Source: an uncultured Desulfospira sp. | Lineage (GTDB): Bacteria > Desulfobacterota > Desulfobacteria > Desulfobacterales > Desulfobacteraceae | NCBI GenBank assembly: GCA_963663165.1 | Contig: OY760175.1 | Span: forward strand, 1-64,000 | DNA: 64,000 bases | Direction of reading: 5' to 3' | Shown here: positions 1-12,049 of the stretch, piece after piece | Position numbering within the stretch: position 1 is the stretch's first letter | How the letters are laid out: each line of letters opens with the position of its first letter | The notes under the pieces: model-generated | What the model saw: the letters and a program-made list of their open reading frames with translations, nothing else | Told to the model about the DNA's origin: nothing | Databases searched by the model: none | Made by a program: the position numbers and the translations under genes

Positions 1-1
1 A

Positions 2-562
2 AGTTTTTTTTGGGATCTATACAAAATAGATCTGGCAACAGCCGAACGTTATAGACAGATGAAGTGCCCCCACTGCCAGGGACCGTTGTATTATGCCAAT
101 TATCCGCGCAAACCCAGGGGGGAGCCTGAAGGGTTGTCTGAAGAATGTTTTTTACAATTCAGTTTATGTTGCGGAAGGGAAGGCTGTCGACGTCGTTTGA
201 TCCCGCCAACCTGCCGTTTCCTTGGTAAAAACATTTACTGGTATGCGGCCATTCTGACGATTGTGTCCGACTGGCAGAACCAATCTGTAGGTATCACGAT
301 GTCCAGGTTTGCTGAAACAATCGGTATCTCCCGCAACACCCTTAGCCGCTGGGTCAGCTTATTCAAAGAAATATTTCCAACAAGCTCTCAATGGAAGAAA
401 ATCCGGGGCCGAGTACCTGCAAGCGTAAAAAATGATCGTCTTCCAGCAAGTTTGGTCAACTTCTATCTGCATCAACAGGCGTCCATCAAAAAAACGTTGA
501 TCTCCTGTTTGTCATTCTTGTCTCAAGGCAGTGAAATATCACAAAAAATAAGGGCCGGGTAA
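2..562 (+). CDS. Cys-rich Zn-binding/HTH hypothetical protein associated with the transposase (5' partial)
   Basis: Frame is open from base 2 (SFFWDLYKIDLATAERYRQMKCPHC...). CPHC and CCGREGC motifs; HTH-like ISRNTLSRWVSLF. Confidence 0.7.
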   Translation, partial: SFFWDLYKIDLATAERYRQMKCPHCQGPLYYANYPRKPRGEPEGLSEECFLQFSLCCGREGCRRRLIPPTCRFLGKNIYWYAAILTIVSDWQNQSVGITMSRFAETIGISRNTLSRWVSLFKEIFPTSSQWKKIRGRVPASVKNDRLPASLVNFYLHQQASIKKTLISCLSFLSQGSEISQKIRAG

Positions 563-677
563 TCTCACGCAGAAGATGGGCGTGGCCTTGGGCGCTCAAC
601 TGTTCTATCAAAGGGGCCGGGATTTTTATCAGCATTTCGCTGAAAATTTTAACTCAAAATTGAAAGGACCCCGGCCT

Positions 678-2123
678 ATGAACAGTAAAAACCAAAGTCC
701 GGTTGATAACTGGGCTTTGTTTCGCTTCTCAGTCGTTGGCGGTTTGCTGGCAAATCCGCCGGCCAAAGGTGAGCTGCGCAAGGAACTGGAAAAGCTTTCC
801 TATCAGATTTACACCCATCCCATCACGAACGAATCAACGGTATTTCATTTTTCAACTATTGAAAGCTGGTATTACAAGGCAAAAAATGCCCAGGACCCCA
901 TTATTGCTTTAGGGCGGAAAGTTCGTTCTGACTATGGCGGTTCAATTGTATTCACACCTGAACTGATCCGGATGCTGGGCAGACAATACCGGACTTATCC
1001 GAACTGGAGCTACAAACTGCACGCAGATAATTTCGCAGCAGAACTCCAGGAAAAGGAGGCTTCAGTATCGGTACCATCCTATGCCAGTGTCCGGCGGCGG
1101 ATGATCGAAAGGGGGTGGACCAGGAAGCCCTCAGCAAAGAAAAAACAGACAGCGGGTATGAAAATTGCCGCAAAGCGGTTCGAAAGCCATGAAATCCGAG
1201 GATACGAAGCAGAATATGTTCACAGCCTGTGGCATCTGGATTTTCATGAAGGCAGTCTGCGGGTGGTGGATAACAACGGTAACTGGTATACGCCCAAAGC
1301 CTTATGTATTCTTGACGACCATTCCCGCCTGTGCTGCCACATCCAATGGTATTCAGGAGAAACCACCCAGGATTTGATTCATGGATTGACCCAGGCATTT
1401 TTCAAAAGGGGGCTTCCCAGGGCACTGATGACGGACAACGGATCTGCCATGACCTCCCATGAGTTTTGCAACGGTCTTAAAAAAACAGGGATACTTCATG
1501 AAACGACACTGCCCTACAGCCCTTATCAAAACGGTAAGCAGGAAGCCTTTTGGGGAACCCTTGAAGGCAGATTGATGGCCATGCTGACCCGGGTGGACCC
1601 TCTGACACTGGAATATCTCAATCACAGCAGTCAGGCCTGGGTCGAGATGGAATATAACAAAACCAGGCATAGTGACATCGGCACATCTCCTGTTCAACGC
1701 ATGCTTGAAGGCAAAGATGTTTCCCGGCCGGCACCGGATGAAGAGCAACTGAGGTTCGCCTTTACAGTCTGCGAATCCAGAAATCAGCGAAAATCTGACG
1801 GTACCGTGTCCATCAACGGGGTAAGATTTGAGATCCCTTCCCGGTTTCACCATATCCCTCGGTTACATGTCTGCTTTGCCAATTGGGATAAATCCATGGC
1901 CTGGCTCATGGACCAGAGAACCGGCAAACAGATTGCGCAGATCTACCCCCAGGACAAAATCAAAAATGCTTCAGGAAAACGAAAGATCAAGTCGAGACCT
2001 GAGCATACCATTCTACCGGATGAAACATTGAAAGAATCCGAGCCTGCATTATTAAGAAAACTGATGGCCGAGTATGCCCAAAGCGGCATGCCTCCAGCCT
2101 ATCTTCCCAAAGGAGAATCATGA
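678..2123 (+). CDS. DDE integrase-core transposase with Mu-transposase-like C-terminus
   Basis: LWHLDFH, ILDDHSR, LMTDNGS, PYSPYQNGKQEAF and DGTVSINGVRFEIP motifs. ATG 678 follows AAGGA (track start 576). Confidence 0.9.
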   Translation: MNSKNQSPVDNWALFRFSVVGGLLANPPAKGELRKELEKLSYQIYTHPITNESTVFHFSTIESWYYKAKNAQDPIIALGRKVRSDYGGSIVFTPELIRMLGRQYRTYPNWSYKLHADNFAAELQEKEASVSVPSYASVRRRMIERGWTRKPSAKKKQTAGMKIAAKRFESHEIRGYEAEYVHSLWHLDFHEGSLRVVDNNGNWYTPKALCILDDHSRLCCHIQWYSGETTQDLIHGLTQAFFKRGLPRALMTDNGSAMTSHEFCNGLKKTGILHETTLPYSPYQNGKQEAFWGTLEGRLMAMLTRVDPLTLEYLNHSSQAWVEMEYNKTRHSDIGTSPVQRMLEGKDVSRPAPDEEQLRFAFTVCESRNQRKSDGTVSINGVRFEIPSRFHHIPRLHVCFANWDKSMAWLMDQRTGKQIAQIYPQDKIKNASGKRKIKSRPEHTILPDETLKESEPALLRKLMAEYAQSGMPPAYLPKGES

Positions 2124-2947
2124 ACAACAAACAGCTTCTGGCTTATTACGGCCTTAAATGGAACCCTTTTTTTCCTAATATCCCCGTGGAAGCCTTATGG
2201 CATCCGCCATTGATGAACAGTTTTATTTTTCGTCTTGAGAATATGACCCTGAACGGGGGCTTTGCTTTGATCAGCGGGGACCCCGGCCTTGGCAAATCCA
2301 AGGCGTTGCAGATGATTGCCCAAAAGTTCGGTAAACTTGACGAGGTAGTTGTCGGGGTAATGGAACGTCCCCAAAGCAGTGTCGGAGACTTTTACCGGGA
2401 AATGGGAGTTTTGTTTGGTGTCAATTTGAGCCCTGCCAACCGGTACGGCGGGTTCAAGGATCTTCGGGAGCGCTGGAAAAGTCATGTAAAAACCACCTTG
2501 TTCCGGCCCATCCTGCTCATAGATGAGGCCCAGGAGATGCTGACCGGATGCTTAAATGAACTGCGTTTGTTGAACAGCGCGGACTTTGACTCCCAAAACC
2601 TGTTGACCACCGTGATTTGCGGCGATGACCGGCTCCCGGAACGGTTCAGATCAAGATCCCTGGTATCGCTGGGAAGCCGGATGCAGTTCCGGCTGACGCT
2701 GCTTCCCTATGTCCGGGATGACCTGCTGGATTACATGGATCACAGCCTGAACCAGGCCGGCGCCCCGCACTTAATGACGAAAACTCTGATCAGGACCCTT
2801 GCAGACCATTGCGCCGGCAACCTGCGGGTTCTTAACAATATGGCCGCAGACCTGCTGACTGCGGGGATTGAAAAAGAACTCAATCAATTGGACGAAAAGC
2901 TTTTTATGGAAGTCTATTCCAGACAGCCGCCCAATAAAAAATCATAG
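2120..2947 (+). CDS. ExeA/TniB-like AAA+ ATPase (transposition helper)
   Basis: Walker A GDPGLGKS, Walker B LLIDEAQ; ATGA overlap with the transposase. Confidence 0.9.
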   Translation: MNNKQLLAYYGLKWNPFFPNIPVEALWHPPLMNSFIFRLENMTLNGGFALISGDPGLGKSKALQMIAQKFGKLDEVVVGVMERPQSSVGDFYREMGVLFGVNLSPANRYGGFKDLRERWKSHVKTTLFRPILLIDEAQEMLTGCLNELRLLNSADFDSQNLLTTVICGDDRLPERFRSRSLVSLGSRMQFRLTLLPYVRDDLLDYMDHSLNQAGAPHLMTKTLIRTLADHCAGNLRVLNNMAADLLTAGIEKELNQLDEKLFMEVYSRQPPNKKS

Positions 2948-2956
2948 GAGAACAAT

Positions 2957-3139
2957 ATGGGTATTTATGATGATCCGGACATGAAACTGGAAGAAATCAC
3001 ACAGGAATTGGAACATTTTATCCTGGATATGGTCCTTGCCGGACTTGAAAGCTTGAATATGGAATATCGGGCCTTCAGGCGATTCCAGAAACAAAGGCTC
3101 ACGGAAAAGAACCGTCATAAAGAACACGAGCCGTTTTGA
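2957..3139 (+). CDS. Small hypothetical protein (60 aa)
   Basis: AGGAG RBS; directly follows the ATPase. Confidence 0.55.
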   Translation: MGIYDDPDMKLEEITQELEHFILDMVLAGLESLNMEYRAFRRFQKQRLTEKNRHKEHEPF

Positions 3140-3176
3140 ACGTACGCCCGGACTCCAAAGGTCCGGGCCTGCCTCA

Positions 3177-3965
3177 ATGGAAAAAATACTTTGGAAAATC
3201 GGCAATTATTTTAAGCACCGCTTCAGCCTGGCAGTTCTTGATGAAATTAAGGGCCGGTGGCCCGTTCTCCCCTCTTGTAAAAACATCCCTTATCTTAAAG
3301 CTGAAAATGCCGGAGGAAGGCACATCCTGATCAGACCTGATCCTGTTATTCAGCCTTATTATTTTCTTGCCGACGATTTAAACATTGACCTGCTTATCCG
3401 GCATCATCAATCCATATCAAACCGCTTTAAACCAGGCAGGATGGTTATAGAAACATCTCCCGGCAATTATCAAATTTGGATTCACAGTGACCGTCCGTTA
3501 AGCCTTCCCGAAAAAAAGTATTGGTTGGAAAACATGCACAGTGATCCCGGCGCCGACCCGAAAAACAGGTGGGGCAGATGCCCCGGGTTCAGGAACAGAA
3601 AAGCAAAACACAGAACGCCTTCAGGACAATACCCTTTGGCAAAGCTATTATGGGTGGACTGGAAATGCCAGGCTATTGTCCCTGAAATAGAATTATCCTC
3701 CCAACCTCAAGAAGTCTTTTCCCATCAACCCCGGGGGGGAGTGTGCCATAACGGTAATATTTCCCGCTCCCTCTATGATAAGGGTGACGAATCTGCCACT
3801 GATTTTGCATATGCTCTGGCCCTCTATAGAAGAGGTTTCTCACGAATGGAAATTTACAATCGCATTATCAATGAAAGGCAGGATTGGATTAATCATGCGG
3901 GTGAACGAAAAAAAACACAGTATCTGATCAGGACATTACAGAAAGCTGAAAAAATTATCAGTTAA
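3177..3965 (+). CDS. RepB-family (AEP superfamily) DNA primase domain protein with C-terminal helical domain
   Basis: LADDL, IETSPGNYQIW, GADP...GRCPGFRNRK and C-terminal DESATDFAYALAL motifs. Confidence 0.8.
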   Translation: MEKILWKIGNYFKHRFSLAVLDEIKGRWPVLPSCKNIPYLKAENAGGRHILIRPDPVIQPYYFLADDLNIDLLIRHHQSISNRFKPGRMVIETSPGNYQIWIHSDRPLSLPEKKYWLENMHSDPGADPKNRWGRCPGFRNRKAKHRTPSGQYPLAKLLWVDWKCQAIVPEIELSSQPQEVFSHQPRGGVCHNGNISRSLYDKGDESATDFAYALALYRRGFSRMEIYNRIINERQDWINHAGERKKTQYLIRTLQKAEKIIS

Positions 3966-4042
3966 AATCGGGCTCTCTTGGCCTCCGGGAAAGCCCTTAT
4001 TTACCATGAAACGTTGTCCATGAATTATCGTGATTGCTCTCA

Positions 4043-4083
4043 TCAAAATGCTGCGGACAGGCCGCAGATTTTGGGGGTTAGAA
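4043..4083 (+). other. attC-like site, lacking its R'' box
   Basis: CAAAAT-G-CTGCGG ACAGG CCGCAG-ATTTTG GGG GTTAGAA: a stem with one extrahelical base, followed by a GTT R' box 16 bp before the next ORF. Confidence 0.6.
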
Positions 4084-4099
4084 ATAGAAAATAGAATAT

Positions 4100-4792
4100 A
4101 TGGAAAAGATAATCGAAATAATAAAATTCATAACATCCCTTAAAAAAAATCCATTTCTTTATTTTTCAGGATTGTTGGTCTCCTCCGGAACAATTCTGTT
4201 ATCGAAAGGTATATTAGAGGTTCTATTAGGTGTTTCTTTTTCATTTTTTGACGATAAAAAAAATAGTGTTTCCTACGAAAGTATTTACACAAATACATTG
4301 GCGACTTTCTTAATATTATTGGGCGTTTTATTATTCTATTACAAATTTTTAAGAAAAGAAAAAATGCCAGTTGAATATTGCAATGATACTTCTGTGATAG
4401 AATATATTTTTTCAGATATTACAAATTTGAACAAACTCGACTACTTCATAGATCAAGCACTCTATCCTTATCTTCTTGAATCATCATTATATGAGCGTGA
4501 TCATATGGAAAAATTCATATTGTCTTCAAACTACCATGTTTATGACAACAAATTAAAGGATCTTATACAATCATTCTATGAAGATTGGTCAAGGACTTGC
4601 TCTCATTGGGAAGCTTTTACACCTACGAATGTCAACGACAAATTGAGACCCAATACATGGTTAGATATAGCAAGAACTGATGATGTACAATTAGCGATTC
4701 GAGAAGTTCCAGAATTTGCTAAAGAGATGCATAGATCTCTTAAAAATTTAGTGGCATATATTAAGACAAATTATAAAGATATCGTATTGTAA
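4100..4792 (+). CDS. Hypothetical membrane protein (2-3 N-terminal hydrophobic segments), AT-rich
   Basis: 230-aa ORF; hydrophobic FLYFSGLLVSSGTILL and TLATFLILLGVLLFYY segments. Confidence 0.75.
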   Translation: MEKIIEIIKFITSLKKNPFLYFSGLLVSSGTILLSKGILEVLLGVSFSFFDDKKNSVSYESIYTNTLATFLILLGVLLFYYKFLRKEKMPVEYCNDTSVIEYIFSDITNLNKLDYFIDQALYPYLLESSLYERDHMEKFILSSNYHVYDNKLKDLIQSFYEDWSRTCSHWEAFTPTNVNDKLRPNTWLDIARTDDVQLAIREVPEFAKEMHRSLKNLVAYIKTNYKDIVL

Positions 4793-4829: not shown

Positions 4830-6327
4830 CAATGTCATTAACTTAACGAAGTGGTTTATAACAGCAATGGAAACGACCGCTTCGATTATTGAAATTCCTT
4901 GGAAATTTTCTGCCCGGTCTTACCGGTTCTATAGTCCTGACAATAATGTCTTGTATAGCTGATATCAACTCAACAACCTTTTCACCTGAGCGAACGAACA
5001 ATAGCGGAAGAACGTCCTTCATTTTTGATAAAGCCTGTGCAAAATTCGGCTTATATTTATACATCCGATCCTCAGTATTTTTGTCAATAATGGTCTGAGT
5101 GGGAAAAGCTAATATTGATGTCAGATTCTTTGAGAACACTCTCGCATGGAAATCCTGGTAAACGGACAGGACTGATTTTCCGGTGAAATTTTCTATTTCT
5201 ATCCATTGTTTCATAGTCTTGTAGTCTTCTTCTACAGGCCACCTCAAATGATAAAGTTCAGAAAACTGATTATGCGTAAAGGTTTGTTTGTCAATGATGG
5301 ATGTAATGAGGATTTCAGCTTCGCCTGTCTCTAACTCAATCCGAATCAATCGTAGTTTTAATGGCTTTAAATCAAGCCCCATTTCTTTGCATTGTTTTAT
5401 TGAACTGGGGAATGGCGTCAAAGATATGATTTTTTCCTTCTTGCCTGAATTATAAAATTGCCGGACTATTTTCCATCTTTTTAGCTGAATCCGGGCGCAA
5501 AAATCGGCACCTTGATTGAGAATGAGATTAAACAGCCAATATGCTGGATAGCCCCTGTCCAGAAGTATAAGGTCACCTGGTACCATTTTTAAACAATGGA
5601 AGGCGGCCAGTTCACGTTCTCCAGTTTCTTTGGGGACAATTTGAGCGTCAACAGTTATTTTGTTGAGTGGATCGAACATCTGAGAAATGCGGGCCATGGG
5701 GCATTTTTCTCCCTGGCGTGGATTCCATGCTCCAAAATTTTTTAATATTGATTCAATCCGGGGCAGTTGAGCTGTCGACCCGTCTATAGCAAGCAGATTA
5801 AAACCCTCCCATCTCAAGGGGGCAAAATTCTGATAGAAAAAATCTATCTGCTGATCATTAAGCTCGGAGAATGCCTCGTATTTTAATTTCATCCTGGCTT
5901 TGGTCAAGGCTGGCTTGGAGATAAATCGCCTTATAACATCAAACCCGAATATGGCTTTAAAGAAATGGTCGAGTTCATCCTGATATGAACCCTTGACCAA
6001 ATTCATCAGGAAAAATATAAGTATTGAAAAGGACAGTTTTCTGTTACGGGTGAAATTTTTTGGACTTTGGCGGTGTTGATTGATAAAATTTGAAGAATTG
6101 ATATTTTTTTTAAGAAAATCAATTAGTTTGGCACATATATTGGAAAGCAGGTTCCGTGCCAACCGGTGTAAAATTGTTATCAAATTTCGACATGATATGC
6201 TCCTTTTTTTATGATAATTGGCTGTTATTATTAGAATTGAGTATATCATGTCGATTTCATTTTTTCAATGATTTTATCATTAATATCAGCAAGTTAAACA
6301 CAAAATCTTCTTAAGTTAATGACATTG
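4830..6327 (-). mobile_element. Intact IS4-family element
   Basis: Perfect 17-bp TIR CAATGTCATTAACTTAA (4830-4846, 6311-6327); 10-bp TSD TGTAGCAGAT (4820-4829, 6328-6337). Confidence 0.95.
4843..6249 (-). CDS. IS4-family transposase (true start probably downstream of 6249)
   Basis: LAIDGS, LLDRGY and Y-x2-R-W-x2-E-x3-K (YHLRWPVEEDYK) motifs. Confidence 0.93.
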   Translation of the reverse strand: MIYSILIITANYHKKRSISCRNLITILHRLARNLLSNICAKLIDFLKKNINSSNFINQHRQSPKNFTRNRKLSFSILIFFLMNLVKGSYQDELDHFFKAIFGFDVIRRFISKPALTKARMKLKYEAFSELNDQQIDFFYQNFAPLRWEGFNLLAIDGSTAQLPRIESILKNFGAWNPRQGEKCPMARISQMFDPLNKITVDAQIVPKETGERELAAFHCLKMVPGDLILLDRGYPAYWLFNLILNQGADFCARIQLKRWKIVRQFYNSGKKEKIISLTPFPSSIKQCKEMGLDLKPLKLRLIRIELETGEAEILITSIIDKQTFTHNQFSELYHLRWPVEEDYKTMKQWIEIENFTGKSVLSVYQDFHARVFSKNLTSILAFPTQTIIDKNTEDRMYKYKPNFAQALSKMKDVLPLLFVRSGEKVVELISAIQDIIVRTIEPVRPGRKFPRNFNNRSGRFHCCYKPLR

Positions 6328-6392
6328 TGTAGCAGATGGCAAAAAGAACGTCGAGCTTTAACATCCCGTTAATGGATAAGGATATCCGAGCT

Positions 6393-7616
6393 ATGAGTGA
6401 AAACAAATATAATCCTGTTTATGATGATAATAAATTCCTCAACACTATCTATGTTGGTAAAAGGATGAAATGGAATGGACGTTATGTTGAATTGATCACT
6501 GAAGACGAACGGCAGTATTTTGTTGTTTCAGAAAAATTAAGCGCAACACTATACGAAACAAATGGTGGTAGACAAAAAATACAAGCAACCGTTCTTGAAG
6601 CTGAAAGTGATGTGAAGGTCCCGGTTATATATCTTTCAAGAATTAATGTCAAAACAGGAAAAATTGCCGATAGTGGAGAGCAACAAATATGCTTATACCC
6701 AGAAGTTGCTGAAAAGCTATATCATTTTATTGGTAAACTTAAATCTATTGATTATTCAAACCCAGATAGTTTCAAAATTAATGTTGAAAGCATAAAAGAT
6801 TTACAGGAAAATTCTATTGATAGCTCTGATAGTTATTTTGCAGCATTAAGAAAGCATCCTATGCGCGCAAAAATAATAGAAAAAATGATTGATGAGGGCG
6901 CAATAACTTCCAAAGATATAGTAAACACTTCCTTCAGAAAAAAAGAATTGAGTATCTTCAAGAAGCTAATTGATAACAGTGAATACTGGAAAACCTATGC
7001 ATCAGAAAATAATATTTTTGATAAGAGAGAAGAGAAGGTTTGGCAGTCTTTCTTTGAAAAAAATCAATGGATATTTGGTTATGGCCTTGACTATCGTTTT
7101 CAAACTATATTGCAACGAGAATCGCATGTTTCAGATACAGAGCTAAATGGATCCAATTCGGTAATAGCTGATTATTTACTTGGAGACAAAAAATTTACTA
7201 CATTCGTTGAGATCAAAAAACCATCAACACCGTTATTTGCGCCATTAAAAAACAGATCTAATAGTTGGAGACTTTCTAATGATGTTGTGTATTCTGTTTC
7301 ACAAATACTTGAACAGAAGGCATCAGGTCTTATAAAGTTGGACAAACAGCAATATAGCTCTTCTGGTAGCCCGATTAGTCAGAAAGCATATGATTCCAAA
7401 GTAATACTTATTATGGGACACTGGAAACAACTTGGAGAATCAAGTAATGAACTTGAATTTGAAATTAAAAAGAAAACATTTGAACTCTTTCGTAATGACA
7501 GCAGGAATATTGAAATTTTAACCTATGATGAGCTTTATGATAGAGCTAAATATATTGTAGAAGGAGAAGGAAAAGAGCTCCAATCAGATTATAAAACAGA
7601 TAATATTCCATTTTAG
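6393..7616 (+). CDS. sduA: Shedu anti-phage nuclease (DUF4263)
   Basis: EEKVWQSFFEKNQWIFG, ADYLL...FVEIKKP, SVSQI and FELFR...IEILTYDELYDRA match DUF4263. Track start 6336 overlaps the IS4 TSD. Confidence 0.85.
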   Translation: MSENKYNPVYDDNKFLNTIYVGKRMKWNGRYVELITEDERQYFVVSEKLSATLYETNGGRQKIQATVLEAESDVKVPVIYLSRINVKTGKIADSGEQQICLYPEVAEKLYHFIGKLKSIDYSNPDSFKINVESIKDLQENSIDSSDSYFAALRKHPMRAKIIEKMIDEGAITSKDIVNTSFRKKELSIFKKLIDNSEYWKTYASENNIFDKREEKVWQSFFEKNQWIFGYGLDYRFQTILQRESHVSDTELNGSNSVIADYLLGDKKFTTFVEIKKPSTPLFAPLKNRSNSWRLSNDVVYSVSQILEQKASGLIKLDKQQYSSSGSPISQKAYDSKVILIMGHWKQLGESSNELEFEIKKKTFELFRNDSRNIEILTYDELYDRAKYIVEGEGKELQSDYKTDNIPF

Positions 7617-7796: not shown

Positions 7797-7878
7797 TCGC
7801 AAATAAATCAAAATTTTTGAGGAATAGTAGAGCGACAGATATGTCTATTTATGTAGCGAGTTTTTTTTGTTGCGTGTT

Positions 7879-7944
7879 CTACCCCGCCCGACCCAGCTGG
7901 ACCCCGCTATACCCCGCCATATTTTGAAAAAATACTACCCCGCC
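7879..7944 (+). repeat. Phased ACCC(C/A)GCY direct repeats
   Basis: Copies at 7881, 7891, 7901 and 7911 (10-bp period) and a fifth at 7937. Confidence 0.8.
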
Positions 7945-7984
7945 ACCATCCATCCGATCATAGATCTAAGGAGGTATCAGGTCT

Positions 7985-8524
7985 ATGAAAAAACAAATCC
8001 GACAGCGCAGGTGTAAAAACTGCCAAAATTTATTCAAGCCAGATCCCCGTCATTTGAAACGGCAAAAATTTTGTAACGAACCCGAATGCAAAATTGCCAG
8101 TAAAAAACACAGCCAGCAAAAATGGCTGAATAAGCCAAAGAATCAGGATTATTTTTCAGGGCCTGAGAATGTGGTCCGTGTTCAGGAATGGCGCCAAAGC
8201 AATCCTGGTTACTGGAAGCGAACAAAGCCTCCGGGAAAGCCATCCTTAACTGAAAATACGTTACAAGAGATAAAAACTGCCAAAACCATTGCTGGTAAAG
8301 GATCTTCGATGGATTTAATTCAAATACCGTTACAAGATTTAATATCGGCCAAGACCCTTGTCTTTATTGGGTTTGACACCCTCCTTAACAAAAATGCGTT
8401 ACAAGAGATTATTGATGCCACGGACCAGGAGACGGTAAAATTGACACCAGATATTATGAAGGAACTAACCAAAAAGAAGAGGTGTCAGCATGGGCAAACG
8501 ATTTTCTTCAAAGGAACTTTATAG
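7985..8524 (+). CDS. Hypothetical Cys4 Zn-binding protein
   Basis: GGAGG RBS; CKNC...QKFCNEPEC motif. Confidence 0.8.
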   Translation: MKKQIRQRRCKNCQNLFKPDPRHLKRQKFCNEPECKIASKKHSQQKWLNKPKNQDYFSGPENVVRVQEWRQSNPGYWKRTKPPGKPSLTENTLQEIKTAKTIAGKGSSMDLIQIPLQDLISAKTLVFIGFDTLLNKNALQEIIDATDQETVKLTPDIMKELTKKKRCQHGQTIFFKGTL

Positions 8525-8798
8525 ATTACGAAATTCAATACCCATTCATGTGTTGATCGAAACGGAACTGGGTATTCCAGCCAAAATAAGTGAAGGGGTT
8601 TTCCGTTTTCTGTGTCCCTTGTGCAATGAATTTCAGACTGCAGTTAATCCTAAGACGAACCTGAGCAGGTGTTTTCGATGCGAAAAGAATTTTAATACCA
8701 TAGATCTGGTAATGGCCTGTCGGCACATTGGTTTTGTTGACAGTGTCAAATATCTTCAGATTATTTTGAATACAAGAGCACCTGATCATGACGTCTGA
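8490..8798 (+). CDS. Stand-alone primase-type (CHC2-like) zinc finger protein
   Basis: FLCPLC...TAVNPKTNLSRCFRCEKNFNTIDLVM...FVDSVKYL resembles the DnaG N-terminal Zn domain. Confidence 0.8.
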   Translation: MGKRFSSKELYRLRNSIPIHVLIETELGIPAKISEGVFRFLCPLCNEFQTAVNPKTNLSRCFRCEKNFNTIDLVMACRHIGFVDSVKYLQIILNTRAPDHDV

Positions 8799-9747
8799 TT
8801 TGGGAACAGAACTCAATATACAGTCTTATCGTCGATGTCGAGTGCCGGCAGAAATAATGCCGCCACTCGGCCTTCCGTTGCCGGAAATTTTTCATGGGTA
8901 TCTGAATTATTACAAACACCAGCTTCGTAACGAAAACAATATCGGCGCAATGAGGCAAATACTGATGAGTTTTCATTTTTTTCTTCAAACGTCAGGCATT
9001 CTTTTAAATGAAATATCCATTCATCAGGTTGATCAATTTTTAGCCCGTTACAACACCAATTATTCTGCCGGGGCAGCCAGATCTAACCGGTCACATCTTC
9101 GGCAGTTTCTCAAGCACCTCTACCGAGGCGGGTATATCAAAAAAGACATCTCTGTGCTGGTGGTGAGCCCTCCTGAGTTTGCTCGGTCAAAACCACCGAA
9201 ATTCTTGCGCCCCCATGAAGTGCAAAAAATGTTTAAGCTCATGAATTTGTCAACAGCAAAAGATCTCCGTATTTATGCGGCTATGCACCTGGCATATTTT
9301 TTGGGATTGAGGCCCGGAGAAATCAGCTCACTTACCCTGGATGACATCTCTTTCAGGCAAAAAGAGATTTTTATTCGTTCGAGAAAAAATTACAGCCCTG
9401 CTCATCTTCCTGTGCCGGACAATGTGATCAAGGCCATCACCGCTTATATTATCGGCGGGAGACCAGAAACCCAATCTCGAACCTTATTTTTACAGTTAGT
9501 GCCGCCTTATAAACCGGTTGGCAGGAGCGACATCCCCCGTCATATAAGAGAATTTATGGCTGATAGCAATCTTGAGTCAAACACATATTGGCTGAGGCAT
9601 TCTTACGCCCAGAATTTGCTGGAGTCCGGTGCTTCCATTTATGAGATAAAAGAAATGATGGGCCATAAAAGCATCGGAGCAACGCAAAAATATCTGAGCA
9701 TCCATATCAACCTGATGCGGGAGGTTATCCTCGGTGAAACGCTTTAA
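8788..9747 (+). CDS. Tyrosine recombinase RitA-like
   Basis: LGLRPGEI, YWLRHSYA and MGH...TQKY motifs. Confidence 0.92.
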   Translation: MTSDLGTELNIQSYRRCRVPAEIMPPLGLPLPEIFHGYLNYYKHQLRNENNIGAMRQILMSFHFFLQTSGILLNEISIHQVDQFLARYNTNYSAGAARSNRSHLRQFLKHLYRGGYIKKDISVLVVSPPEFARSKPPKFLRPHEVQKMFKLMNLSTAKDLRIYAAMHLAYFLGLRPGEISSLTLDDISFRQKEIFIRSRKNYSPAHLPVPDNVIKAITAYIIGGRPETQSRTLFLQLVPPYKPVGRSDIPRHIREFMADSNLESNTYWLRHSYAQNLLESGASIYEIKEMMGHKSIGATQKYLSIHINLMREVILGETL

Positions 9748-10708
9748 AAGCTTTCTTAGCGAATATATAGAGGATTTTATCGAATACCGTCTTCAATTGG
9801 GATATTCAGATAAAATGCTGCTGTGCAGCCTTCGGTTGCTGGATCGGTATGTTGCCCAAAGGGATGTGACCTGGACATCATTTGATCCGTTGTTTTTCAT
9901 CCGACTCCGTTCAGACCTCAATTGTGAAAACCGTTCCATCAATACATTTTTTCGAACGTTTCAAATGTTTTTCAAATATCTGATCCGCAGAGACCTGATT
10001 TTGACAAATCCCATACAGGAGATTGCTGAGCTGCCGGAAAATCAGATTATCCCTTTTATTTTTTCTCCGAAAGAAACGGATCTTTTATTGAAAACTGTCA
10101 TAAAACAGATGCGAAAAACAAAAAAATATTACCTCACCGATTTTAGCGGTTATATCTCTTTTCTGCTGATGGCCCGGTGCGGCTTGAGAATATCGGAGAC
10201 GTTCAATTTGCTGCAAAAGAACTACAGGTCTGAAGAAAGGACAATCTATATTGAGAAAACAAAATTTAAAAAAGACCGACTGATCCCAATACCCAAGGCC
10301 GTTTCTTGTGAAATCGACAATTTTTTGAACGTGCGACGGCTTTTACTTATTGCCGATGTGCATCCTTTATTATTGATCAAAGGAGATGGCGGAAAGTTAC
10401 CCCGCCATTTCATGGATCGAAAATTTAAAAAAGCGATTTCGGCCATTAACCTTGATCAGCACAAAAAAATTATTGGTGCTACAAATTTCAGCAACCCGAC
10501 ACGGCACTCACTTCGTCATTCCTTTGCTGTAAATACACTGAAACGAATTAAACAACAGGGCAAGTCTGCCCAAAATGCGTTGCCGGTGCTGGCCGCTTAC
10601 ATGGGACACAGCGAATACAAGTATACGACCAAATATCTGAGAGTTCTGGATGCAGAGCATCGCCGCCAAATGCTTGATTTTTCGATGTTGAGAAGTGAGG
10701 ATGTATGA
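9734..10708 (+). CDS. Tyrosine recombinase RitB-like
   Basis: CGLRISE, KTKFKKDRLIP, HSLRHSFAV and LPVLAAYMGH...TKY motifs. Confidence 0.92.
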   Translation: MKRFKSFLSEYIEDFIEYRLQLGYSDKMLLCSLRLLDRYVAQRDVTWTSFDPLFFIRLRSDLNCENRSINTFFRTFQMFFKYLIRRDLILTNPIQEIAELPENQIIPFIFSPKETDLLLKTVIKQMRKTKKYYLTDFSGYISFLLMARCGLRISETFNLLQKNYRSEERTIYIEKTKFKKDRLIPIPKAVSCEIDNFLNVRRLLLIADVHPLLLIKGDGGKLPRHFMDRKFKKAISAINLDQHKKIIGATNFSNPTRHSLRHSFAVNTLKRIKQQGKSAQNALPVLAAYMGHSEYKYTTKYLRVLDAEHRRQMLDFSMLRSEDV

Positions 10709-11724
10709 GATTATCCACCTGCCTGCATCAGTATTTTTATGAATACCTGCCCCATATAAAAGGGACCAGCGAACAAAGCATTAAAACTTACCAGCAGGCT
10801 TTTTCTTTGTTTCTGCATTTTTTGGCGGATTATCATTCGATCAAAATCAAATCCTTGAAAATTGACCATTTAACACCTGACGCTGTTCTGGGCTTCCTGA
10901 ATCATTTGGAAACAGACCGAAAAAATACCGTCCAGACCCGGAACAACCGCTTGGCCGTGATCAAGTCGCTGGCCAAGATGATCCGATTCATGCATCCGGA
11001 CAAAAAACGAGTCGCAGAAGCTCTTTTGACCATCCCTCAGAAAAGGGCTCAAAAGAAGGTGATGGGATTTTTACACCCAGAAGAAATAATGAAAATTTTC
11101 AGTGTCGTCGATTTAAAAAAGAAGGAAGGGATGAGAGATTTTACCATTCTCCATCTGCTTTACGACTCCGGTGCCAGAGCCAGCGAGATTGCCACACTGG
11201 AATTTGATTATTTTGATCCTGAAAACGAAACCATTGCGGTCCTGGGCAAGGGGAACCGATACAGGTTGATCAACCTGTGGTCCAAAACCGCATCACTGAT
11301 CTCAGACTATATCACCAATCATAGAGTAGCCCCCATCCCATTATTTGCACACCGGCTGTTCATTAATCAGCGGAGGCGGGGAATGACCCGGCATGGTATC
11401 AACAAAATTTGCCGAAGATATCTGACAAAAGCATTGCCGGAAAAACGGTTGAAAGGTCTGAGTCCGGCCCATTGCTTCAGACATTCTTGTGCGGTTAATA
11501 TGGTGACTTCAGGGGCCCCCGTATCGGATATCAAAAATCGCCTGGGCCATCAAAGCGTTGAATCAACAATGGCTTATTTGCAGCTGGACTTGTCAAAAAA
11601 ACGGGAAATCCAGGATAAGCTCATTGAATATATGCAATCGAAAATAAATCAAGACAAGAAGATTGATGAGCTGATCGACTGGAAAAATAATGCTGAAATC
11701 CTTGCCTGGCTTGACAGTTTATGA
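10705..11724 (+). CDS. Tyrosine recombinase RitC-like
   Basis: TRNNRLAVIKS, SGARASE, LGKGNRYR, HCFRHSCA and LGH...TMAY motifs. Confidence 0.92.
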   Translation: MRLSTCLHQYFYEYLPHIKGTSEQSIKTYQQAFSLFLHFLADYHSIKIKSLKIDHLTPDAVLGFLNHLETDRKNTVQTRNNRLAVIKSLAKMIRFMHPDKKRVAEALLTIPQKRAQKKVMGFLHPEEIMKIFSVVDLKKKEGMRDFTILHLLYDSGARASEIATLEFDYFDPENETIAVLGKGNRYRLINLWSKTASLISDYITNHRVAPIPLFAHRLFINQRRRGMTRHGINKICRRYLTKALPEKRLKGLSPAHCFRHSCAVNMVTSGAPVSDIKNRLGHQSVESTMAYLQLDLSKKREIQDKLIEYMQSKINQDKKIDELIDWKNNAEILAWLDSL

Positions 11725-12049
11725 TCCATTGAGGTAGCCTTTTGCTATCTTTAAAGCGGTATGTAGTAAAACAAAAAATTATGTTGCCAGTGATTATGAA
11801 AAATTTTATAATCCACTGTAACTCATTGAATTTAAAAGTCGATATTGATTTGCACAGCGGGTGTTTGAATTTATCATAAAAATCAATGAGTTATGACCAC
11901 TCGCAACATAAGTCTATCATCTGTCGCCCAGACCTCTTGGAAAATAGTATTGAATAACAGAAGCATTGTGGGGTGGAAGCCGTTTTAAACTCACATTCCG
12001 CACCCTAATTTGTGATAAATCCGTATTTTTTTTGTGCGTGCAACGTCAA

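Follow-up and report, generated by a model that had tools for sequence, protein, structure and literature searches.

The stretch of DNA analysed here, referred to as the window, comprises positions 1 to 64,000 of the forward strand of contig OY760175.1 from an uncultured Desulfospira sp. (GenBank assembly GCA_963663165.1). Its first 4042 bp hold most of a transposon of the Tn6049 family, which carries the gene of a RepB'-type primase and, within that gene, a conserved sequence resembling ssiA, a single-strand initiation (ssi) site of IncQ plasmids. The genome carrying the window (G000) is a circular contig with an 11-bp terminal overlap and was scanned over 6.74 Mb. The element is 4206 bp long, and its left 164 bp lie across the contig origin. 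Its features in the window are as follows.

1..4042, + strand: Tn6049-family transposon, bases 165-4206 of 4206 bp, delimited by 11 copies with common ends and target duplications.
2..562, + strand: orfA, 195 aa, start codon just 5' of the window; Cys-rich putative Zn-binding part and a helix-turn-helix (HTH), from sequence and homologues.
678..2123, + strand: DDE transposase, 481 aa (515 aa from an in-frame ATG at 576); Pfam rve.
2120..2947, + strand: AAA+ ATPase (ExeA/GspA-like), 275 aa; Pfam AAA_22, Walker A and B visible.
2957..3139, + strand: 60-aa open reading frame (ORF) matching no Pfam family; weakly constrained, with a ratio of nonsynonymous to synonymous substitution rates (dN/dS) of 0.46-0.75.
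3146..3168, + strand: short inverted repeat, seen in the sequence, just 5' of the point at which relatives switch between the primase and an alternative sequence, X.
3177..3965, + strand: primase of the RepB' type (262 aa) with a catalytic and a helix-bundle domain, from Pfam, a PDB match and selection.
3715..3750, + strand: candidate ssiA-like single-strand initiation site within codons of the primase linker, with a predicted GTG start triplet at 3741-3743; putative function.
4002..4042, + strand: right end, an imperfect terminal inverted repeat of 41 bp with a final CA; 85% identity to the right end of a miniature inverted-repeat transposable element (MITE).
4043..4047, + strand: 5-bp target duplication TCAAA, matching the bases that flank the left end.

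The original prediction, made from the sequence of the window, had described a Mu-like element of five co-oriented ORFs (Zn/HTH protein, DDE transposase, ATPase, 60-aa ORF and RepB primase). Both the coordinates (2-562, 576/678-2123, 2120-2947, 2957-3139 and 3177-3965) and Pfam agree with this gene set, with the HTH of orfA only sub-threshold. The Cys residues of orfA are conserved among 29 homologues (dN/dS 0.13-0.18), and a relationship with the DUF6431-like first ORF of distant relatives was not supported (probability 6%). In the transposase, D188, D253 and E289 are invariant in 45 sequences and 35 residues separate D253 and E289. The 60-aa ORF occurs in primase-bearing relatives and in some primase-less ones. 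The fold assignments for the element proteins rest on profiles and PDB sequence matches.

The closest backbone in a search of plasmids is Tn6049 of Cupriavidus metallidurans CH34, which has the same gene order and identities of 47% for the transposase, 50% for the ATPase and 34% between orfA and its first ORF; the ends of the CH34 element match the published Tn6049 ends (PMC4739549). Both elements comprise orfA, an IS481-like transposase, a GspA/ExeA-like ATPase and a small ORF, have TG...CA ends and short target duplications, and occur in many copies. Tn6049 is 3.5 kb long, with 12 copies in CH34 and a gspA-like ATPase (PMC2864759), and shows a 5-bp duplication on pMOL28 and a 4-bp duplication on pHS87a of Pseudomonas aeruginosa (PMC4739549). 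It differs in its own small fourth ORF, which shows no similarity to the 60-aa ORF, and in the absence of the primase, the site (best score 6.4) and X. The parts of the literature covered give no transposition mechanism for Tn6049.

The transposase, whose Tn6049 counterpart is labelled IS481 in RefSeq, scores 104.6 bits against the IS481 profile NF033577 (cut-off 224), falls below the IS3 cut-off and reaches 37 bits against the IS21 IstA profile NF033546 (cut-off 160), and the ATPase has no PF01695 (IstB_IS21) match. Against PDB, the transposase profile matches retroviral integrases best and Tn6677 TnsB at E 1.5e-5, with no MuA among its 21 matches; for the ATPase, the top PDB hit is a chain of the MuB type at an E of only 0.17. 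No resolvase was found among the element ORFs in the Pfam scan. Mu and Tn7 make a fixed 5-bp duplication, or members of the Mu/Tn7/Tn552 group yield cointegrate products with a resolvase. With target duplications of variable length in addition, the Mu-like label was not borne out, and judged by sequence the backbone is that of the known Tn6049 family and not Mu. The element, taken for an unrecognised combination of genes, has a known backbone and is a variant of the Tn6049 family that is new in carrying the primase and the site; an incomplete literature search, covering papers in part, found no insertion sequence (IS) described as containing a primase or an ssi site.

The boundaries were established by comparison of multiple copies. 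The right end lies at 4042, 77 bp 3' of the primase stop, and is followed by the target duplication, both as anticipated, whereas the left end, expected to read TGAGAG, lies at the opposite end of the circular contig (6,740,860) and begins TGAGAATGG. Of the 11 copies in the source genome, six are identical and intact, one is interrupted by two other elements, three are variants identical to each other (97.3%, 112 differences), and one is a mosaic of both types (38 differences). All 11 have matching flanks, of 3, 3, 4, 5, 5, 5, 5, 5, 6, 6 and 6 bp, the two 3-bp matches being weak taken singly. Because identical copies occupy unrelated sites, the element has been active recently. Few metagenome copies (L027, L028 and L041) showed target duplications, which is probably due to contigs that merge separate copies. 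In every one of the 11 copies, and also in relatives, the primase is enclosed by the ends, in keeping with its predicted membership of the element.

The primase matches RepB_primase PF16793 with 58 bits (cut-off 24.3) and RepB_primase_C PF22448 with 34.6 bits (cut-off 26.1), and its family profile aligns full-length to RSF1010 RepB' (3H20, E 8e-21). Residues D66, D67, D123, R134 and Y39 are unchanged across all 79 sequences and correspond to RSF1010 D77, D78, D134, R145 and W50, with residue roles taken from PMC8567376; R252 (R285 in RSF1010) is kept in 75 of the 79, and D204 (D238) is D in 44 and N in 29. The dN/dS of 0.06-0.27 is similar to that of the transposase in the same pairs (18 of 20 pairs with computable dS). 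By these alignments the primase is intact, under purifying selection and in possession of all catalytic residues.

Each element has one candidate site, on the top strand; in the element described here, 292 bp separate it from the right end. Among the 45 four-fold degenerate sites of the primase gene, those of P185, G187 and V189 have an entropy of 0-0.38 bits and the other 42 of 1.35-1.98; these three synonymous positions are near-frozen (72 of 76, 69 of 71 and 76 of 76 sequences). The linker peptide SHQPxGGVC is accordingly conserved because the underlying DNA is conserved. A two-block site profile drew on 78 of the 79 primase genes, and four findings outside those genes bear on it. In the source genome, scores of at least 42 occur only in the 11 copies and in three copies of a MITE, the next score being 18.9 and the shuffle maximum 18.7. 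The MITE, 373 bp long and present as three identical copies (G000:C1:2726987-2727359, 4409221-4409593 and 5266572-5266944; L006-L008), has 26-bp terminal repeats resembling the element right end, 5-bp duplications and the ssiA-like site, with no long ORF seen. Furthermore, at locus L103 the in-gene site is decayed and a good copy lies 3' of the stop codon, inside the right end. On the IncQ1 plasmid L156 (6.5 kb), the two top profile hits fall one on each strand with 76 bp between them, with scores of 13.1 and 7.4 that are notable by rank only; the best hit matches the published ssiA numbering at 7 of 7 positions (C7, G27, C28, C30 and G31-T32-G33), and the second would be ssiB. The primase is proposed as the cognate enzyme of the embedded site. 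A primase of the same clade occurs at L175:2290-5240, on a 6.5-kb contig that also encodes a DUF5906 helicase-like protein and an HNH ORF and has two ssiA-like sites in inverted orientation; this contig may be a true replicon and a source of the cassette of primase and site. Viral contigs gave no match to the site pattern and one weak fragment in the primase search. Locus L174:4196-6909 holds a 2.7-kb internally deleted derivative that retains both ends and the site and in which pieces of orfA, transposase, ATPase and primase are fused into one 756-aa frame.

The distribution of the cassette was followed from both sides. In a primase-first metagenome sample, the best 80 of 296 loci, 78 adjoin transposon or recombinase genes or ends and two are too short. 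The Tn6049-type transposase or ATPase, in some cases fragmentary, stands beside 61 of the 80, and another transposase-ATPase type beside three; 12 are in a RIT/tyrosine-recombinase context (10 by gene, eight of them Pfam-scanned, and two by end sequence), one lies inside the 60-bp repeats of an IS21 element, and one follows an IS110 transposase (L078). In L101 and L094 the cassette precedes the recombinase genes; elsewhere it follows them. A further, unassigned backbone (L038, L039 and L077) combines an ORF of 190-208 aa, a protein of 545-563 aa that matches nothing in Pfam and an AAA_22 ATPase, with the primase 5' or 3' of these. The primase tree, a quick version with many open forks, intermingles the backbones and is weakly resolved; neither it nor the transposase tree (FastTree, 61 rows, duplicate loci and rows shorter than 380 aa excluded) fixes the donor of the cassette or the order of events.

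Since the primase-first sample holds the primase by construction, the search was repeated from the backbone side. The transposase profile was found in 32 of 401 genomes of the phylum, with the primase alongside in three, many contigs being short. An ATPase-first search found 20 of 160 other genomes of the family (56 matches, 30 examined). Eleven of the 20 carry primase and site, including one with a broken primase and one (L001, genome G795) that is 100% identical to G000 across 14,786 bp and not independent; nine lack both, among them genomes with 13, 6 and 3 matches. The expected co-occurrence of primase and transposase is thus found in part: the primase is stable within lineages yet optional.

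In place of the primase, all nine genomes of the family that lack it carry X, a conserved sequence that is non-coding, spans about 190 nt and fills the interval from the ATPase or small ORF to the right end. Loci L190 and L191 agree through the repeat matching 3146..3168, to a few bases 5' of the primase start, and then continue with primase or X. X folds well (z -4.5 and -6.0), its helices show changes on both sides (covarying), and a GCGNAGC mini-hairpin terminates it in 24 of 29 sequences; pairing was counted by motif anchors, with helix P3 misregistered at one pair and the counts taken without a shuffle control. X matches no Rfam family, gave one 44-bp hit on plasmids and occurs in 39 of 301 genomes of the class. 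At the 30 X loci examined, the same ATPase type mostly lies upstream; in two, X comes after an IS110 transposase, and at several no element gene could be recognised. The exchange recurs in IS110, where L078 carries the primase and L250 (55% identical transposase) and L230 carry X. No full X was found at 147 primase loci (repeats included), three of which held the 3' half of X after the primase, and neither primase nor site at 38 X-first loci. Origins of the Frpo and sso type are long stem-loops at which the host primes single-stranded DNA. By analogy with the Frpo, ssi and sso sites (PMC7690428, PMC5714925), and with GCGNAGC-type mini-hairpins, which are far more stable as DNA than as RNA and occur at single-strand origins (PMC13037366), X is probably a host-primed single-strand origin. 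The sole X copy of the source genome belongs to a distant DDE and ATPase element (L010:4288-8480; G000:C1:5653288-5657480), with another transposase gene between ATPase and X. In the distant backbone of L217:3209-4165, an AAA_25 (RepA/DnaB-like) gene lies directly 3' of the ATPase, in the primase slot.

The reading favoured here, held with somewhat better than even confidence, is that the element is a copy-out, paste-in transposon with its own cassette for priming the second strand of a single-stranded circle. Its ends, copies, gene set, intact primase and top-strand site conserved at the DNA level are observed, and the steps built on them are a proposal. On the top strand, the transposase would join the 3' end of the right end to a point a few bases beyond the left end, and host replication from the freed 3'-OH of the flank would displace the top strand as a single-stranded circle. 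The element primase would bind the exposed site and lay one primer at about T3742, directed leftwards; host polymerase would finish the double-stranded circle, which transposase and ATPase would insert with duplications of 3-6 bp. In this model the circularised strand would be the top one, and the right end would attack. Primase-less relatives would use the folded X in the same slot, and the MITE would borrow transposase and primase from the element. In copy-out, paste-in transposition, a single-strand bridge links the two ends and is replicated into a circle (PMC7780238, bioRxiv 2023.06.07.543989), and replication of such a bridge can yield single- or double-stranded circles (PMC10214605). 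The cassette suits a single-stranded circle because a displaced circle needs exactly one oriented primer, and its position before the recombinase genes in L101 and L094 fits a circle better than a fork. Furthermore, the relative L033/L034 shows a junction of right end, four bases and left end, L034 being a circularly closed contig. More broadly, it is about an even chance that many circle-forming elements of the Tn6049, IS21, RIT and IS110 types share an exchangeable slot for second-strand priming, filled by a RepB' primase with an in-gene start site or by the host-primed folded origin X.

Several observations weigh against this reading. The L033/L034 junction comes from two contigs of one metagenome data set and may reflect a tandem dimer. 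No circle of the 4206-bp element was seen: contigs of four runs (at most two samples) show no end-to-end joint, which is uninformative either way, as contigs drop rare forms; in viral contigs, the end-to-end junction pattern gave three matches, all of them devoid of element genes. Site hits inside the genes from which the profile was made do not count, being circular by construction; both IncQ scores lie below the genome-wide shuffle maximum, and the site in the window folds no better than shuffles (z +1.35). The frequent G-T pairs of X would also suit an RNA. Finally, Tn6049, L136 and L155 lack primase, site and X, and neither module is required by the family, since Tn6049 reached its copy number in CH34 without them.

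This last point leads to the alternative that the primase cassette and X are selected passengers of unrelated function in a permissive slot before the right end, X being perhaps a regulatory RNA. That the backbone works with neither module, that L217 holds a helicase-like gene in the slot and that P1 contains G-T pairs are all in its favour. It is nevertheless unlikely, as primase and X are mutually exclusive in two unrelated element families, the site is retained by a MITE that has little else, and the mini-hairpin that closes most X sequences is a motif described as much stabler in DNA than in RNA and as occurring at single-strand origins (PMC13037366).

A comparably doubtful proposal is that the cassette acts after conjugative transfer, priming the second strand on incoming single-stranded DNA that carries the element and thereby aiding its spread from cell to cell and not its transposition as such. 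The ssi/Frpo sites of conjugative plasmids work in this manner (PMC7690428), and the optional presence of the cassette would suit an accessory role. A related primase domain, 44% identical, is encoded by a Desulfosarcina plasmid gene (L157:5695-7143) in a Dot/Icm-like transfer region; that gene, however, has no embedded site (best score 8.9). Moreover, the primase would be needed before its own gene is double-stranded, only one of two orientations on the vehicle would gain, and all 11 copies lie on the one contig covered.

The original prediction had offered two roles for the primase, in replicative transposition or on a circular intermediate, of which priming on a circular intermediate fits better. 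In Mu-like (Shapiro-type) transposition, the primase would prime the displaced top strand once a left-end fork had passed the site near the right end; the pairing of a DDE transposase with an AAA+ ATPase, the 292-bp distance of the site from that end and the MuB-type match, poor as it is, are compatible with this. The matching flanks of all 11 copies, the variable duplication length, the absence of a resolvase, the end-to-end junction of L033/L034 and the cassettes upstream of the recombinase genes make it decidedly unlikely. Autonomous replication of the excised circle as a mini-plasmid is highly improbable: RepB' is a plasmid replication protein, and L175 pairs a same-clade primase with a helicase-like gene and two inverted sites, but RSF1010 replication needs all three proteins and two sites (PMC8567376), and full replication of the circle is unlikely because the element has a single site and lacks both a RepA-like helicase and a RepC-like initiator.

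The element resembles several known systems in part. With RSF1010/IncQ RepB' the element shares the two-domain primase with the same catalytic residues and a site that starts pyrimidine-rich, has one C-rich and one G-rich arm and includes GTG; it differs in its single in-gene site, weaker hairpin, transposon setting and lack of RepA and RepC. With the copy-out, paste-in families IS21, IS3, IS30, IS256 and IS110, which have circular intermediates (bioRxiv 2023.06.07.543989), it shares TG...CA ends, and with IS21 also the DDE and ATPase pair, although its ATPase has no IstB_IS21 match and its transposase lies far under the IS21 cut-off; an end-to-end junction with a short spacer is seen in the relative L033/L034. 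Locus L007:4323-8265 is an IS21 element (IstA, IstB) with three extra upstream genes, which encode a Cys-rich product, an HTH_36 protein and a product of 278 aa that matches nothing in Pfam. For IS911, a requirement for DnaG has reportedly been found. Described copy-out members leave circle synthesis to host replication (PMC7780238). The IS-excision enhancer (IEE), the nearest idea in the literature covered, is likewise an AEP-family enzyme acting on copy-out elements (PMC9943667), but it is an AEP-helicase fusion that promotes IS excision; the part of that source drawn on mentions neither a location between IS ends nor an accompanying ssi site. Strand-biased circularizing elements (SE/GInt) likewise have a bridge on the top strand, and circles of one or two strands have been proposed as their intermediates; SE circles were detected mainly as double-stranded, and the main text of that paper does not mention a primase (PMC10214605). 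RIT trios carry the same primase. Both SE/GInt and RIT differ from the element in using tyrosine recombinases.

A RIT-like element of about 4.08 kb also occurs in the window (7839-11917), with three integrase-like ORFs and, at its head, a Cys-rich ORF of 179 aa followed in this list by a CHC2 zinc finger of 102 aa, a Zn ribbon of the DnaG type. It is present as four near-identical copies, one of which interrupts orfA of the transposon copy at 4,929,062, and has no ssiA-like site. The low-GC stretch adjoining the transposon encodes a DDE_Tnp_1 transposase on the minus strand (4843-6249) and a Shedu SduA defence nuclease (6336-7616).

In copy-out transposition, a major pathway in bacteria, the copying step is usually ascribed to host replication, and little is defined about how the second strand is primed. 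Because the element brings a primase of its own and one oriented site, this step becomes testable by point mutations, with predictions for the displaced strand, the attacking end and the start of the primer; furthermore, a primase gene with an internal start site would constitute a compact priming part of less than 0.8 kb. The exchange of primase and X suggests that insertion sequences contain a class of single-strand origins that has been overlooked. If the broader reading of an exchangeable slot is true, copy-out would pass through a free single-stranded circle of defined strand, and insertion sequences would have single-strand origins like those of plasmids and single-stranded DNA phages.

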